Of a DNA stretch of 64,000 nucleotides, positions 19,803 through 30,700 are shown one piece after another (position 1 is the first letter of the stretch; every line of letters starts with the position of its first letter). The stretch lies in NCBI GenBank assembly GCA_000182565.2, contig KQ257458.1; one strand, 5' to 3'. The position numbers were made by a program, and so were the translations under genes. Source of the stretch: Spizellomyces punctatus DAOM BR117 (taxonomy: Eukaryota). The notes beneath the pieces are model-generated. The model saw nothing but the letters and a program-made list of their open reading frames with translations, did not search any database and had not been told where the DNA came from.

Positions 19803-19994
19803 TTTGGTACTACACTAGGTTTTTTGGGATGGGTGCTCTTGTTTTTTGGCCTGTCTTGAATATACAAAGGGTTTATCTATTGTCATCCATGTGCTGCTTT
19901 GGCATCTTCTGTTGAACAGCTCTGTAAAAAAAATGCATGCCGCAATTCATAAGAAGGCAGCACATTCCACCCATTATCATGTATTACAGGACTC

Positions 19995-22900
19995 GCTATG
20001 TGCGCTCAACTGGGAGTCCTCTTTCGAACGATAATATCTCCAAAACTACAACGTAGGGCGAGTTAGGACCAACCAAGAAAAACTAACCGTACTCAAACCA
20101 ATCTCTGCTTACCTATTCCCGCCGCAACAGTAACAGGCCCAGCCCTCAACATGAACCGTCCCAATTCCTTACTATCTTTGAACGTCTCCAAACAAATCGG
20201 CCGCGATGTCTTGATTTCTACAACAGCCGTAACGTTTTTCGGTAACGCCCTAGGATTCTTTTTGATGGTTTCGCCAGTACTTTTGTTCAGCAAGGCTGAC
20301 AGTTTTGTAATGGTTGATTGTTCGGTAAGGGATTGGTGATGGAGTACCACCTGCCGACGGTCATTGGGTTAGTTCTAGTGCGGTAACATAATAGTTTACA
20401 GGTTTATATACCGGGACGCCAATGGTGAGTGGAATCTGGATATCAAAGGTAACAATCTGTGCTCGAAAGTGCGATGTAACCGCTACCGGCGCAGAGGGAT
20501 CGCACAGAATGCTCCCCACACTTTGAATTACATGGTCAGAAATGCGGTTCATCTGTAAGACTATGTGTACGACTCACTTTATATGGGCAATCTCCACACC
20601 CGTTAGACTCATGAGGACGCTATCGCCCGCAGCAGCCCATTTGACCGCTTCTTCGCTCACTTCTAGCGCTGTTAGGGATGAACATTAGATCAAGCGTGAA
20701 ACAGCAACATGCCAAATTCTCACCCACCTCGTACGGTCCCGTACTCGTTGATCGGCATTACAAGAACAACTTCTCCAACCTGTATACCCCCTGCTTCTAT
20801 TCTCCCACTGACTGATACAGCTCCTCCGCCGCCTGCGCCGATACCACCCTTAAAATAATCCGCAATCGACAGGCGAAAGGGTTTATCTACAGCCCGTTGG
20901 GGTGCCTCAAATGCATCTGGATCGCGACACAGATTAAAGTCAAAGCATATTATCAAGTCCCCATTGAGCACGTACCGATTTGTTCCACCAGTGTTGATCC
21001 ACTGTACCAAGCATTCAATTTATCGCTCTCCCGTTTTACCAAGTTTTCTCCGGTATATCCACTGGTTGGGATAAACGCGACCTTTTGCTTTCGAAATCCG
21101 ACTTGTGAAAGGAAATGGGAAAGCTTTTCTGAAATTTCGTCAAAGCGGGTCTTTGACCAATCAACCTTTGCATAAATACCCGCCTTTGGTCAAAACAACT
21201 CCCTCGTGCTGTAGGTAATAAGGAAAGAACAAACTCACCACGTCCAGCTTATTAACAGCCACAATGAGTTGCGTAACACCCAGACTTCTGAGTAAAACTG
21301 CGTGCTCTCTTGTTTGTCCACCAGAATCAAACCCAGTTTCAAATTCACCGGGTGTAGCATCGACTACCAGGATCGCTACATCAGCCTTTGACAACGTGTA
21401 TTTTAGTTGAGGTGCATGAACCATTGGTTATGCTACCAGCACGTACCTGGGCAGCTCCAGACATCATATTTGGGATAAAATCCCTGTGTCCAGGTGCATC
21501 AAGTAGAGTGAACTTTCGGTGAGGTGTGTGGAACTTGGTAATTGCTACATCAATGGTGACACCCCTAGCGTCAAGTGCGAAGACATAGTTAGCTGAACCC
21601 CGAATCTATAACATTGGTCCACTAACTACCCACCGTGTCCGCTCCTCTTCAGTTTCATCAAGAACCCAAGCGTATGCGAAAGAGGACTTTTTCATCTTCT
21701 CCGCGTCACGCTCATACTTTTTCATTGTTCGCTCATTCACTTCGCCGAGGAGATATAGTACGTGCCCCATTAGAGTACTCTTACCCGCATCCACATGTCC
21801 TGCGATACAGCGAGTTACTCAATAGGCAAGGTTCAAGCAGCGGTATGATATGTGAGAGGAAAAAGGATATCCTACCTACGACAACTAAATTTAAAGATTC
21901 CTTCTCCGCATTGCGCTTCTTGTACTCCTCAGCCACGTTGATGCGCTTGAGCTTCGGGGAGCTTCGTCCGGTACTTGAGGACGACCCCGTTCTAGCCATC
22001 GCAGGAGGCGCTAATGACGAGTTTGAACTCGAGGCGGAAACTGTTCTTGCCATTGCTGGTGGTGGTGCCAGTGTTGCCGATTTTGGGGGTGCAAGGTTCA
22101 ATCCAGAGAGATCCATCTGAAGCTGATCCATTGGCTCTGGAATGGGTTCTTGCTTCTTTCGTATTTGAGGTGTGGGTTTTGATGAGGGCAACTTGGCAGA
22201 TTTGCCAGCTGTACGTTTATTGTCCATGCCTATTAGAGATTGCGAGTGCAGTGCGGATACTTCATCATCGCAAACTACTTACAAGGTCCTATTTTTGATC
22301 TTGCTTGATTGACCACATCGTCCGGACTTGGTGCGTCAAATGCAAAAGGCGCCACGTCGTCTGCTGGTACAAAAGGGGACGACAGAAAATCATTAGAGAT
22401 GGCACTTGTTTTGTCTCCATTCTCGTGGTGTGTAAAAAACTGAGCAAAGGTCGAGGGTGCTGCAACGAGTGGGTCGTCATTTGCGTCGCTATGATGTCGA
22501 GGTTTGGAAGAGCGGAGCGGAATAGTGGTTGGCAGCCTGACGGGTTGTGACTTTGGCGTGCTGAAGGGAATTGACGTTTCGGCATCCGGTTTTCCAATTC
22601 CTGAGTTTGGGAGGGTTTTAAATGGTGTTGGGAAAACGGACAAGGGCTCCTTTGTTGACGCAGCTGGAACAGTTCCAAGAGACCCCTCAGAAGCGTTTCC
22701 CGCACTCTGAAGCGAAAATGCCGCCAGCGCCGATCGAATGGCATCTGTGCCGCTCATGATGTTTGCGGAATTTGATGCCAATTGACTCAGACCTGGGGCG
22801 TCATTGATGGATGATTTCTGAGTGGCTCCCAGTAACCCAGATGTACCCGAGAGTGATGAAAGATTGCTTAAAGACAGCGGTGTCGCCGCCATAGTATTTC

Positions 22901-24526
22901 CCAATGAGACCGAGGCCAGTGAAGATAGCGGAAGGGCCCCAGAAGGTGAACGAGTATTGCTCAACAGCGACGATAGCGATTGCGATTGTGGGACTGCCGG
23001 AACGGGAAAGGGGACAGATTTGACGGCATTCTCTGGTGCTAAACTGTTGCCAAGCACTCCAATTGCATCCCCGCTCTTTGTTAGAGAAGAAGTAGATTGA
23101 TGAAGTGATGACAAGAGGGTGCCTTGTGGCTGCAGCGGGAACAGCGAATTGGTCTGAGAGAGGTTCGAAGATGGACTTTGGAGGAGGAGTGATGACAACG
23201 GCTGTGCTTGTGACAGCGATGATACGGCTGTTTCTTTAGCTCGCTGTTCAGATGGTGGGGCACCTGCCAATCCTTGAGGAAACGCAAAAGGCGCAAGTGA
23301 CTGTCCAGACGCAGGCAGGGACGATAGCAAACTGCTGCCCAGAGAGCTTGGTGCAGGCAAGCTGCCGTACATAGAATTAGCTGAACTGGTCGCCGAAACG
23401 GCATCGTGTTTTGCTGAGGAACGCGCGTCGATGAGCCTAAAGCTGTCCGTCGGTGAGTGGGTTGTCTGACCAGCCTGTTCCTTAATATCGGGAACTGTCG
23501 TGGATGCTTGCTCCACTTGGCGTGGGCTACGGCTGGTTTCAACATCAATCGTTTTTCCGCTATCACTCTCCATCGACTCGATCCCATCCACCAACTGACG
23601 TTTTTGGGAGTTCGTTCCGGTATCCTTCAATGGGAGTTTCGAAATCTCCACCGTTACAGGATAGGCAGTGCGGAAGGCGACACCATCTTCCTCAGCTTGA
23701 ATGATCGTTAAGGTCTTGTCGGATTTTAGACCTGGACGGAATTCCAGATGTCACCGCCAGATCCTTGAAAACAACTCGTGTGATGCAAGCATTGGCGTAC
23801 TGTGCATACCCCGGATGCTTCGACAGTAATCACCAAGACGCAGACGCACCCTTCACCCACACCTTCGCACGTACTGTTAAAAGTCCTGAAGTGCTTACCT
23901 GCAATACGCGATGCTGGTTGTCGTGAATCCGATTTCAATGCAAATCCTGGCGGTGGGGCTACTGGGAAACCAGGAGGAGGAGCGATCCGCGGACCTTGGT
24001 CTAATATGCGTTAATAGAATCAGAGTTCTGTATCAAAAGTTTACGTACTATAAGCGTTGCATTATCCGTTACCGTATAGTAAATTCACAGCACGCTCAAT
24101 ATCATTGCCGCTGTCTTGCAATACATCCGATATTTGTTCGGTTGGAAAATCATCACCGACAATGTTTCTCACTTCTTCGACAAGGTTAATGGCACCTCGG
24201 GTTTCTGTAACAGGCTTCTGTTCTGTATCTATAAATGATGCCACTGTGTGTCCCCCCTGGGCTTCGTATGTGTAATCGCCTGCAGTAGGGATAAAAGTCA
24301 TTACACTGTCGTATCCCATGCCCATACAGCAGCCATTTTAGAATAGCACCGTCATCCCCCATACCGTCATATTCCTCCTCATCGTAGTAGTCGTCATCGT
24401 CATAGTCTTCGTCTAATTCATCTGAGAGAATGAACGGAATTAAGAAAACCGCTCGAAAGTGAATCTCTGCGCATAGGGTAAGATACCATCAAGATTTATA
24501 TTCCTAATGTTCCTATGCCGGGACAT
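19995..24526 (-). CDS. HBS1: Hbs1 translational GTPase with a Ski7-like cassette exon
   Basis: MSRHRNIRN start, HBS1_N/CUE-like region, [60 protein letters not shown]-terminal LGRFMLR. Confidence 0.93.
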
Positions 24527-24728: not shown

Positions 24729-27700
24729 ATGACAATAGAGTTTACCTTAAGGAATGCCTTGTCGAAGATTGATTCCGAGAAAGCAAAGGTGAGGTAAACC
24801 GCTTTCGACATTTAAGCTATAAATGTTTCCCTAACATTGTTTAGGACCGAGACTCCGGCCTTGCGACCCTAAAAACTCTGCTATCAGATGATCGTAACGT
24901 GTTGGACGTCGATGAAGGCACCTGGAAGACAATTTTTGAAAGTTTCTGTAGGTAAGTTTTCCATATAATCCACAGCGATCTGTATTTTCGTCGTAATGTT
25001 TGCATGAAGATGCGTAGAGAAGCAGAAGGCGCTCTTCTTAACGAAATCCTCGGGCACATCCAAGGCCAGCAGTCAAAACGCCGCTGCGAGGGCCCAAAAA
25101 GCATTGAGCGAGCTTGGTCAAGATTTTCGCTGGCTTTGTGAGCGTGCCCATAGATCTCTGAAATGCGCTTTGGTTAGACCAATTCTGGAGCATATTCTTG
25201 CAGTGCTACCATACCGTCATGGCCTCTTTAAACCTCTCGCAGTGTCATACACTAGAGCTCTCCGGCAGATGCTCTCGTGCCGCTCGTACAGGGATCATAT
25301 TCCGTTGAATGGCTGGGACGCTCTTACGAATCTTTGCATGAACGGACTGAATGCTGAGGATGAGGACGGCGATAGTTCATCTGGATTCGAATCCGTTGAG
25401 ACACCTTCACCTACGTCCTTGCCTAACTTTCGTAGCTCGAGGCGGTCAACATCGGCCGATAGTATCGAGCTTGCCCGAATAATGGCTCTGCTGGTAATCG
25501 GATGTCCAAAAGATTTGGGCTCCTGTGCCGACTCCTTTTTGGAGTTTTTTGGTTGCTACTTTGCGCGCCATTTACACGAGACACCTTGCCATACTCCCCT
25601 GCTGACAGCAACGAACCACTTGCTTTTCGAAACAGCTCACCAGAATATGCAAGCGGTAGAGGACTTTCTGTCAACAGCCATACCACATCTGTTACCCCTA
25701 TGGGAAAGTCGCTCAAACCACACATTCCGTTATCAATTATTGTGTATTATGCGGTTCTATCTCCATGTCGCGTCTACCACGAATCCGGCTCCGGACTGGC
25801 AGACTAACTGCTCGCAAATTTATGAATGCGTTCAGCGCGAAATGAGCAGCAAGTTCGGCTTTGGTCCACTCTCGAGTATAGCTCTCTTTGTTTGGGCAAT
25901 CAGAAAACGGCAGCCAGATTTTTTGGTCCCTATCACGAAAGAAGACTTGCTCGTATATAATCACATTTCACCCAAAGATATGATGACTTTTGCTTTTCTG
26001 GACCTGTGCTCGGACGTCTTCTTCCATGTACTTGCACTGGAGGCGAAACCTGAGAAGGACCAAACCCACGGTCATGATATCACGCCGGCTCAGGATGATG
26101 TCTCCGACACGTTGAGCAAACGGAAGAAAACAAAGAGAAGCGATGTCGTAGCTGATATCACACGCATACTGGCGCTGAAGGCTGCGAGTAAGGATGAGAA
26201 GATTGCCCTATTGCAAGCTGTGACACTGCTGCTCGTCAAACATGGGTCCCACGTATCAGAAAAACTGTCCAATGTGACTGCCAGCTTGAGCAGCATTGCT
26301 GCCGGTGCCGACATTGATTTGCAAGGATGGGCATTGATATGCCTTGGGATATATGGAATGTCCGCTGACTCGAGAACATTTCCATTCACGGGTTGGGAAA
26401 TAGCGTGGAATACCTCTGTGCGACTCATGGTCACGGATACACCCGCAGCCGAGGCTGCATTTTACGCAATGGAAGTTATCACTGAAAAACAATTGATATC
26501 GGAAGAGATCATCGTCGGAGCGAAGGCGGAGATCTTGAGGGCTATGCGCGATGGTGTCCTGGTACCATCACCTGGCTCTCTTCATTTCCTGCTGCGGTAC
26601 ATCGAGTGGACTACAGCAGCTGGAGATGCTGCTTCCGGCGATCAGGCATTTCCCATACAGGAAGTGGCGTCATGGGTTTTGGCACCTTCAAATGCTTCAT
26701 CAAACACGAATAATCTATCAAGGAACCAGTTGATTACACCCCGAATATTGGCTTCGTTACTGCTATCCTTATGTGGGGTGCCATCAACGGGCTATGAGCG
26801 AACATTCGATGCTGTCGACGCCGTACCAGTACGTATTTGCGGAGGAGAAGAGCACTTGTCAGAGTGGCGATTGTCATTGGTGAAGATACTATGGAAAGAC
26901 ATTGTTAATGAGGACTTTGAGCATTTGTCCAAATTGAAATCGCAGGTGCGAGTGCCACTGCCAAAGGATAGGACAGGGTTGGCGCACCAGGGCATCTGCG
27001 TCTTGAAGGGATTGGAGGAGCATTTGCAGAATCTACTCAGTTGTTGGGACAGGATTGAAATATCAAAAGTCAAGCCAAGTGCTGAGCAAAGCGATACACT
27101 GGGGCGAATCGTTAGACAATCATTGGATGCCTTGTCCACTACTATTTTCGTTTCGCGTCGAATGTCGTACACCGGCGACACGGCGAGACGTCATGTTAAC
27201 GAGTCAAACCTCGCATTGCTGTTGTCAGCCATAGCTGCTAGGCTAAATGAAGGTCTCCGCCAGCTTAATGGGTGCGATAGCTTTGTAGGCATTCTTGAAC
27301 GGCTAGTGCAGATACTGACTGAGTGCCATGACTGCATGGAGGGAGACTGTGTTGCTCCCACGTCTGTATCTACACGGCCGGCAGAAACGCATTGGTATCC
27401 TCTTTGGCCAATGCCAGTTGATACTGGTATTGCCCTCATGGCTGTCATGCAAGCGATGTTTCATGCTGACGTCAAACGAAGAGGTGTTGCAAACAATCAA
27501 ACCACAAAATCATCTACAGCGGCGTTCGATGAATTTGATAGCCCAGACACAACTGTCGGTGGAGGGAGCGGCGCTGTAATCACCTCGTTACAGATGGAGT
27601 ACTTTTATGGGACATCATCGACACCTGTTGGGACGGTTATAGAAAGAGACTCACTCATGTTGCGGGCCATGCGACTTCTGTATAGTATGAATTGGGGCCA

Positions 27701-30700
27701 AGCAGCATCTGCAGAATTGGGTTCATTGCGGAATATGATTGAAAATACAGTGGCGACCGCAATCCCGACAGACACGGTTGACTTGTTTCATTTAGGTTTC
27801 GAGATCGTCGATTTTCTGGAGTGCGCATCTGCCATCCATCTGACGACAGGTGAGTGATGGTTTATAAGATGCAAGTCAGCCGTAAGGATACTGATTTCCA
27901 CACCATACAGATCAATGTCGAATTGTTATCGAGAGGAGTGCTGACCTTTTATCAACTTATGATAGCGAGAGGAACCAGTGGGTCTGGATCTATATCATAC
28001 GAAGTTTAAAGTCCCTACTGCCCGCGTTGGTAAAAGCCACGGAGGAGGCGGACCTTACCGATCAAGTTGGTAGTTTCCTTGCGTATTTTATGAAGAAGGT
28101 ATCTGGCAACACAGTTTGCTGGCGCGTGTGTTTAGAGTTAGGGCAATTACTTCTCAGGTACCTGTTACTCGATCCTGGTCAGGTAACTGCTTGCTTATAT
28201 TTGATGACAAGGCTTTCGGGATCAACAACGTAGTTTCCTTTCAGGGGTATTTTAGGCGATGTCTCGGATCCGACAGCAAGGACTCAGCCTTGGTCATTGT
28301 CCTCGGACTCTTGACGCATGAAGAATTCATTGTTCGAATCCGTATGGGCCACGATGTGCCAAAGATCTTTGGCATTTTCGACCCAGAGGACCATTCAAAC
28401 ATTTTTAATGACATTCACGATACCCTAGCCAAGAATTGCTTTGGATATCTGCATCTCTTGAGTAACATTCTCACTCTCGGGGAGGTGTTCTTGGTGACTG
28501 AGCAAGAGCGCGCCAGCGTATTGCTCTCCTTGCTCCATATGAGCAAAGAAGACGATGCACAGCACATGGTGGAGGCCATTATAGAAGTTGTAGCACATCG
28601 GTTGAGCCTGAAGGACGGAACGCACCTTTTGTCGGAACTGTTGCCACATGTGCTGTGGGCCTGGGATGACGACATCGGCAAATTCCCCTTTGGACTGTTG
28701 ACGATTCATTCGGCGAGCGATTTCTTCATTGCGTATGCGGAACATATTGTGCCCAAGTTGCTGCTCTCCAGTGATTTCGATTCTGTAAGAACGCTTATTA
28801 AAGAAAGTGGGGGTGACGCACTTCGAATCTTGAAAAGGGCCTTGCCATGGTCAATGGTAAGATACCATGCTGGCTAAGGATTACTTTGATGTAGCATTAA
28901 TCACTTCTTATTCAGGCTTATTTACTACCCCGACTGATTGATGGGGGCTTGCTCAAGGGAAGAATCGGGCAATCTGCGAAAGCGAGGACAGCAGAAGCCG
29001 CAATTCGCTTTATGAAAGACTTGATGGGTGACGAAATGTTTAACATTGAACTGACGAAAAGAACTCCGCGAATTATTGCGAATTTGTTAAAGTCTGTCTT
29101 CGACTCGAAAGCCATGGCAACATGTATCGATGATTCAGAGTACTCCATTCTAAGTGAAGCTCTCCAAAGAATGTCTGTCCCAGCTACCGGCAGCGCTGCA
29201 CATCACTCATGCCTATGGAAACATCAGTATCTGCCCTCATTCGACAGTCGTACCATCATTCAATCACTTGAATATTTGCAAACTTTGTATCAAGAGGATC
29301 AACGCGCCACCACTGGAGATTGTACAAGTGCGCTTCATGAGTTCTTCAAGCCGGGTCGCCTACAGAGAGTCTTGCAGGACTTGCACGAGTCTTTAGATCA
29401 GATGGTTTTTGTCCATGACAAGCACCGATTGATTTCGAATGGGTATCGTCTTGTAGTCGCGATCTCTGCTCCGGCATTGATGCACCCGTTTCTTTTTGAA
29501 ACAGTGCTCCAGACGCTACTTCAAAATATGAAGTACCCAGAAATGTCCTCAGTGTGTTGCGTTATTTTGGAATATCTTTATTCTTTTGCGGTAGCGAATG
29601 ATCAATCTGTTATCGGTTCGACCCTAACTTCGATCGCTCCAGCTTTGGCCGAGCAAATATCCACCTATCTGGCTTCGAACACCCAGGAAGCAGCTCTCAG
29701 GGTGAAGACCCTACTTGACAGTATTTTGGACCTTTGCTGGAAAGTTGATCAAAGAATCGTCACGCTCTCCATACTCCAGCTTGATTCCAATCTGTCCTTG
29801 TTCGAGGGTCTGCGAGACAGACATGGGGCGACGAAATGTGATGGAGATCCCCAGTTGGTGTTAAGTTTAGTGGCGTTAGGGGATGCAACGGCATCGGCGC
29901 AGCTTGCCAGAGTTAGATACCTCCGACGTGCGCTGGAGAGTACAGATCTGGTTAACAGATTACGCATATCCGAAGATACGGTGAGTGTAGTTATAGCGCA
30001 TTTGCAAGCAATGCTGCATAGCACGCAATGCGATGACGTTTTAACGGAAGAGATCGTTAAATGTCTGGGAAGGCTGTCGCCGGTGGTAACCCACCGCGCG
30101 GTTAAGTACGATTATTCCATCTCGCGACATCTTGGAAACACAGGACCTGTAACTCGCAAACTTGCTGTTGGCTCTCCCGGACACCGCGTGGCTCTCAGTT
30201 ACCTCCAAAAACACTTAATGGACTCCGACGTGAAGCAAGTCAGCATTGTAGTTCGAACGCTCAGACAGCTGCTATCGTGTGACGCTGGAAACTATGCTTT
30301 TGAAAGTCTTGAGCTCGATGTGTCCAAATACATTAATATATTTCGGGGGAAGATCGCACCGAAGACCAAAGTTTTGGCAACTCAACGCGCATATCCTCCG
30401 CTTGAGGATTTAGACGTCAGCTTGCCGACATCCGACACATCCATGCACCCGAACGCTCATATTCAGACCTTCGACGACTGGACGGTTACGTTGGCCAACA
30501 GCTTGATAGCCTCATATCCAACGGATGAGTTCTATCCAAATCTCGGACTATGCTTTGAATTTCGACCGGCCTTTGCGGACATGATGCTCCCTTACCTAAT
30601 TCATAGCGCATTGTTGTTTGAGGCGGAAACAATCAAGGGATCGACCAAAAGAAAGCTGCCCATGTCGTTGAGAACGCTACTGTCCGAAAAGGTGAAGGCC

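Follow-up and report, generated by a model that had tools for sequence, protein, structure and literature searches.

The single HBS1/SKI7 gene found in the genome of the soil chytrid Spizellomyces punctatus DAOM BR117 very probably makes both Hbs1 and Ski7, and the main route to the shorter of these proteins appears, on balance, to be a choice between two acceptors by one splice donor. The gene lies on the minus strand of the window analyzed here, a 64,000-nucleotide (nt) stretch of contig KQ257458.1 (assembly GCA_000182565.2). Use of the proximal acceptor (23731) by donor 23899 would yield a long form of 1161 amino acids (aa), in which the N-terminal domain is followed by a long disordered segment, a SKI7-like helix, the Patch 4 motif and the GTPase; use of a distal acceptor (22363 or 22360) would yield a 705-aa protein that lacks 456 codons, the SKI7-like helix among them, and retains Patch 4. 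The next intron (22282-22209) would be spliced out in both forms. Gene identity, motif homology, the splice signals themselves and one poly(A) site are established; we infer the use of the distal acceptor from the DNA and the functions of both forms from homology: the short form would act as Hbs1, working with Dom34/Pelota in ribosome rescue, and the long form as Ski7.

One HBS1 locus with Ski7 motifs

Exact spliced mapping of the RefSeq protein XP_016607234.1 (P0001; named EF-1 alpha and the sole member of its own cluster) resolves the gene into 15 exons and 14 introns. This protein is the long-form product, and the last 78 residues of the exon that carries the Ski7 motifs match it at 100%. 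Its GTPase part combines an eRF3/EF1A-like G domain with domains II and III (Pfam GTP_EFTU, 1.3e-9; GTP-eEF1A_C, 3.6e-26), and its closest relatives, 78-79% identical in the nearest genera, are named HBS1-like. The other end also has the features of HBS1, an acidic N-terminus and an HBS1_N/UBA-like helical domain (helices at 65-103 in the AlphaFold model): UBA_Rad5 (1.7e-6) and CUE (2.5e-5) score above their cut-offs, HBS1_N itself (E 0.007) under its own. When the genome is queried with the Powellomyces protein, the GTPase exons of the locus align at 71-79% identity, the hits on four further contigs (32-61% identity) are read as other translational GTPases, and a single HBS1 locus stands among the 17 genome matches. 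No separate HBS1 or SKI7 paralogue was found in these searches, which score best candidates only and which a very divergent copy could escape; a search for a 265-844-aa protein with the Ski7 motif region, in itself weak evidence, found none among 32 candidates. Genes for exosome/SKI partners (Ski2_N and Csl4) are present in the genome.

The Ski7 features reside in exon 5 (23731-22283), which, as the preliminary description of this locus had it, is 1449 nt (483 codons) long, stop-free and in phase 1 at both ends, with the acceptor CAG|23731 and the donor 22283|GTAAGTAG; its two motifs are indeed found at 22469-22431 and 22349-22299. S. palustris keeps the reading frame: its indels are in frame, and the complete proteins are 91% identical. 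By its sequence, the 3′ end of the exon is of the Ski7/HBS1L3 type, as had been proposed. The comparison relies on a profile of the motif region built, within early-diverging fungi, from the window and 17 relatives picked for having both motifs (17 of the 22 printed). Among 177,635 PDB sequences the profile matched only five at E<=10, namely human HBS1L isoform 2, which aligns over both motifs (E 2.9e-6), and four constructs of yeast Ski7, which align over Patch 4 alone (E 0.004-0.016); the same region used as a single sequence found no match in PDB, and a Pfam scan of the exon found no family. At E<=0.001 the profile matches 548 proteins. The SKI7-like motif (consensus A+PShFAahL) has P, S and A invariant in all 18 selected sequences; two positions of the animal consensus, its basic residue and its last Leu, are not kept. 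Both exon motifs agree with published consensus motifs (PMC6143672). The human structure places the first motif at RRP43-MTR3 and the second at CSL4 (PMC11540850); of the two, the first has been described as necessary and sufficient and the second as minor (PMC5389692). A strict Patch 4 pattern matched the genome twice, and the second match has an in-frame stop, so there is one in-frame copy (a looser pattern had given 54 uninformative matches and was replaced by the stricter one). With a single in-frame Patch 4 and a single HBS1 locus, this locus is therefore the one candidate source of Ski7 found in the genome, which bears out the idea of one gene serving two factors.

The remainder of the long exon is predicted to lack a confident fold: the alternative segment has a predicted local distance difference test (pLDDT) score of about 30 throughout an AlphaFold model that is itself poor (mean pLDDT 42.6, 9 sequences). 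Two stretches of it are shared with relatives. One is a motif at the exon start, which the gene has in common with a Logan protein and with Geranomyces, Borealophlyctis and Rhizophlyctis; a local hidden Markov model (HMM) of it recovers, besides its four seeds, P0166 (7e-7) and P0184 (6e-4). On the N-terminal side of the exosome-binding part, where a SKI-complex-binding region would be expected, there are repeats of the LSxL type and a conserved stretch that looks helical; a DAIRSAL-like amphipathic stretch that recurs in several chytrid orthologues is a candidate SKI3-binding helix. The Thoreauomyces model begins at a Met immediately before that stretch.

A probable choice of acceptors for donor 23899

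How could the same gene make a short Hbs1? The preliminary description favored skipping of the whole 1449-nt exon. Missing from that model is an internal 3′ splice signal located between the two motifs: a CTAAT branch at 22396 is followed by a 77% pyrimidine tract without AG and then by tandem CAG-CAG acceptors, and the exons that would start at 22363 or 22360 are both in frame with donor 23899. Under a strict rule (YAG in frame, preceded by a CTRAY branch, no AG in between), the 22363 site is the only in-frame acceptor in the 1145 codons of the long coding sequence; the background is 5 in 8740 codons of the long open frames in the window, or about 0.006 for a 10-codon window.

The predicted product resembles annotated relatives. 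With 456 codons removed, it would have 705 aa and G1 at 274; the annotated Zopfochytrium orthologue has the same length and G1 position, and that of Powellomyces hirtus (710 aa, G1 276) runs from the proline-rich exon end directly into Patch 4. Alignment to the Powellomyces protein scores 672 for the distal-acceptor form vs 590 for the exon-skipped form. At the protein level, a phase-1 YAG is possible in four long forms, with P-A, S-A, T-G and T-A at residues -7/-6 before the Patch 4 Phe, and incompatible with the G-G of Geranomyces. Of 74 fungal entries tallied (26 chytrid, 48 other; 2 non-fungal rows among the first 76 and 44 animal-type rows were excluded, and six long entries to which the HMM assigned no S7 were classed as long by eye), short annotations with Patch 4 and without the SKI7-like motif make up 3 of the 26 chytrid and 3 of the 48 other entries. 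Further support for the two-acceptor model comes from P0018, a Logan contig of 2854 nt that clusters with Gigaspora and in which a single frame encodes the two motifs together with the GTPase.

RNA evidence bears mostly on the 3′ end of the gene. Among four runs examined, X1-X3 consist of unspliced low-depth contigs without joints, and X7 (one run, 6% of it read, stage unknown) covers essentially 3′ ends; its coverage and poly(A) tails suggest a 3′-end type of library. Seven reads confirm the last intron (20112-20046), and five with untemplated T-runs before position 19910 mark the poly(A) site, upstream of which reads peak at about 19910-20300. At least 148 reads pile up before this site, vs about 48 bases of sense coverage (about one read) in 22138-22805.

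Several observations weigh against a choice between two acceptors. Only 5 of the 14 true introns pass the strict rule; the distance from branch to AG is 30 or 33 nt at the internal acceptors vs 16-25 nt in the 14 annotated introns; and the distal intron would span about 1.5 kb vs 57-167 nt for the others. Of 5000 trials of synonymous recoding, 484 (about 10%) created a site of this kind, so protein constraint could account for it. RefSeq has the long form alone, the orthologue models are predictions, and short annotations without Patch 4 also exist: three in chytrids (Polyrhizophydium, Lobulomyces and Clydaea; one more is unclear) and 23 elsewhere, mostly of the Mortierella type. Of 10 ascomycete-like metagenome loci, only 1 has an acceptor immediately ahead of Patch 4 that is in frame and passes the strict rule; no chytrid-like locus was recognized in the best 80 of 517 hits of that scan. 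Finally, X7 has no junction reads in the alternative region, where it had almost no coverage.

The distal acceptor would be followed, as would the proximal one, by removal of intron 5, for which the preliminary description had chosen the AG at 22229. The S. palustris model does use this upstream AG, and the RefSeq model uses 22208, which is more likely because both the branch-point distance and the motif spacing of chytrids fit it: the CTAAT branch at 22236 lies 25 nt ahead of the AG for 22208, within the range of the gene, and directly abuts the AG at 22229, while the motif would lie 12 aa from [G/A]KS if 22208 were used and 19 aa if 22229 were, compared to 11 aa in five of five other-genus chytrids that have the pattern at a consistent spacing. 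Upstream, intron 4, twice as long as the others, stays open in frame with exon 4 until just beyond the intron end. An additional acceptor within it, at 23763, was rejected: its AG is out of frame and runs into a stop.

Less likely readings: exon skipping, intron retention and the long form alone

Skipping of the whole exon, with donor 23899 joined to 22208 (or 22229), would give a 678-aa Hbs1 with neither motif. The junction is in frame, as had been claimed, short orthologues without Patch 4 are annotated in the chytrids and Mortierella-type entries listed above, and exon skipping has been described in basidiomycetes (PMC3597508). This route nevertheless seems unlikely: the spliceosome would have to pass over both the consensus internal acceptor and a perfect donor 74 nt from its acceptor, the closest short orthologue (Powellomyces) retains Patch 4, exon-skipping rates are low in fungi (PMC6142364), and no skip junction was seen, though X7 coverage there is almost nil. 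Nor does the phase-1 symmetry of the exon, correct in itself, single it out: the first six introns (and 9 of the 14 overall) are in phase 1, which makes every exon from 2 to 6 symmetric. Alternative 3′ splice sites, rather than the skipping first proposed, are favored by the internal acceptor and by the closest short orthologue that has been annotated.

A third product, a 620-aa Ski7 without the GTPase, would arise if intron 22282-22209 were retained or polyadenylated; it is compatible with either mechanism for the short form, and we consider it less likely still than skipping. The retained intron would stop translation after two codons, at TAG 22277-22275, and the protein would end 13 aa after SPDD, like human HBS1L3 and the animal-type matches (12-13 aa); 129 of 143 profile matches end <=30 aa after SPDD, many of them probably gene calls running into an intron. 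GTPase-less annotations with an intact N-terminus, which may be split gene models, occur in the early-diverging fungi Rhizophlyctis rosea (619 aa), Dichotomocladium and Actinomortierella, and 9 of the 10 ascomycete-like metagenome loci (taxon and donor judged by eye) combine a weak donor with a stop at the corresponding position. Yet the Spizellomyces donor at 22282, unlike those weak ones, is the strongest of the gene, the only 6/6 GTAAGT consensus among 14 introns. The preliminary description had also stressed the immediate stop, which exists and is nothing special: retention would end within three codons for 4 of the 14 introns and inside the intron for 9. As signs of regulation, both phase symmetry and early stop were rejected, being frequent among the other introns of the gene. 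A poly(A) site predicted for 22230-22282 was not seen in the part of the 3′-biased run that was read, which peaks at 19910 only; an intronic poly(A) form would have peaked near 22138-22805, where the near absence of coverage, set against the pile-up at 19910, shows no such peak. X7 is blind to a form that combines retention with the distal poly(A) site, in which nine downstream introns would follow the stop.

The nine metagenome loci (L007, L009, L010, L012-L015, L019 and L021) have their own pattern: after Patch 4, a weak donor sits behind an A-K codon pair, a stop follows 17-23 codons past SPDD, and an acceptor comes soon after, which suggests that these ascomycete-like genes make a GTPase-less Ski7 by intron retention.

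That the gene makes the long form only, as a constitutive bifunctional Hbs1/Ski7 whose internal acceptor arises incidentally from the protein sequence, would suit the RefSeq annotation, the recoding trials and the 19 of 26 chytrid entries that are long or have both motifs, and is the least probable reading, given that the Lachancea kluyveri long form fails to complement hbs1 (PMC3597508), that no second HBS1 gene was found in the genome search and that short forms are annotated in relatives.

The features of the gene are collected in Table 1. Its neighbors are a TEL1/ATM-like gene placed head to head with it (25008-27857, plus strand; TAN domain, E 8.6e-12) and a convergent gene (DUF3512 match, E 0.001, below cut-off) whose poly(A) site at 19885 (+) is 25 nt from that of HBS1 at 19910 (-).

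Table 1. Features of the HBS1/SKI7 gene in window coordinates
Feature	Coordinates	Strand	Basis
HBS1/SKI7 gene, ATG 24526, stop 19998-19996	19996..24526	-	RefSeq long form XP_016607234.1
Exons 1-4: acidic N-terminus, UBA/HBS1_N-like helical domain, proline-rich end; common to all proposed isoforms	23899..24526	-	Pfam
Intron 4, 167 nt, longest of the gene; donor GTAAGC, non-consensus branch GTGAC; ends at proximal acceptor 23731	23732..23898	-	
Proposed Ski7-specific alternative segment, 1368 nt, 456 codons, Ser/Leu/Ala/Pro-rich; lost if distal acceptor used	22364..23731	-	
Short exon-start motif common to other chytrids; no Pfam family	23643..23705	-	local HMM
Conserved amphipathic stretch (DAIRSAL-like)	22707..22751	-	by eye in P0004, P0007, P0063, P0166, P0184
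SKI7-like motif (AxPSxFA), counterpart of human RRP43/MTR3-binding helix	22431..22469	-	profile alignment to 9g8m_E; consensus in PMC6143672
Internal 3′ splice signal: CTAAT branch 22396, pyrimidine-rich tract, tandem CAG-CAG acceptors	22361..22396	-	DNA signals
Patch 4-like/S3 motif (PFxFxxPSPDDxV), contacts Csl4 in solved structures	22299..22349	-	profile alignment
Intron 5, 74 nt: GTAAGT donor, in-frame TAG 22277-22275, branch CTAAT 22236, acceptor 22208 (alternative AG 22229)	22209..22282	-	
Exons 6-15: linker and translational GTPase (G domain, domains II and III)	19996..22208	-	Pfam
3′ untranslated region and poly(A) site 19910, the only one seen for the gene	19910..19995	-	RNA reads

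Comparison with known HBS1/SKI7 genes

A literature search found no paper on a chytrid HBS1/SKI7 gene; it cannot show the case to be unpublished, the main 2018 PNAS survey lying outside its reach. That survey, by Marshall et al., reportedly sampled diverse eukaryotes and may include early-diverging fungi. HBS1/SKI7 splicing has already been reported for animals, fungi and plants (PMC7491326), and the Spizellomyces gene is a further case of this known system, with a corrected splice model and no new mechanism. What it adds is the extension of a conserved splicing event to a genetically tractable chytrid, a RefSeq model that is probably missing an Hbs1 isoform, and help in ordering the changes in Ski7 production (two acceptors, skipping, terminal exon). 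A bolder and rather improbable proposal is that chytrids share the ascomycete-type acceptor before Patch 4, which would place this mode at or before the chytrid-Dikarya split, that the same gene may also make an animal-type GTPase-less Ski7 through retention of intron 5, and that SKI-binding elements particular to chytrids, namely the exon-start motif and the DAIRSAL-like helix, may reside in the long insert; if true, one transformable early-diverging fungus would show all Ski7 architectures together.

The closest parallels are the single genes of Lachancea kluyveri, Aspergillus nidulans and Saitoella complicata, in which alternative 3′ sites just upstream of motif S3 have been proven by reverse transcription PCR (PMC3597508). 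There, the long form complements ski7 and the short form hbs1, both have the GTPase, and the Saitoella short form retains S3. Spizellomyces differs in that it lies outside Dikarya, has an animal-type AxPSxFA motif and has isoforms that are predicted from signals in the DNA; its alternative segment has 456 codons, as against a difference of about 26 kDa in L. kluyveri (PMC3597508). The basidiomycete genes (Cryptococcus, Ustilago) come nearest to the model of the preliminary description, with exon skipping for Hbs1 and possibly a truncated Ski7, but in them the splice sites of the downstream "intron" are poor and its read-through is conserved (PMC3597508), in contrast to the perfect donor and two-codon read-through of Spizellomyces.

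In one chytrid the parts are arranged differently: the Polyrhizophydium stewartii protein (P0009, residues about 690-1130) has no Patch 4 before the GTPase and a Ski7-type segment with both motifs after it, which may represent a relocated exon or a fused neighboring SKI7 gene.

Outside fungi the likeness is looser. Plant genes such as Arabidopsis At5g10630 use a cassette exon and have a zinc finger (PMC6143672), unlike the two acceptors and long low-complexity insert of Spizellomyces. Human HBS1L3 (HBS1LV3/SKI7; PMC5389692, PMC11540850; PDB 9G8M) has no GTPase and finishes with a terminal exon that carries a separate poly(A) site, to which no peak in X7 corresponds; and in the human RxxxFxxxL motif, the Arg and final Leu are replaced by Ala and Phe in Spizellomyces.

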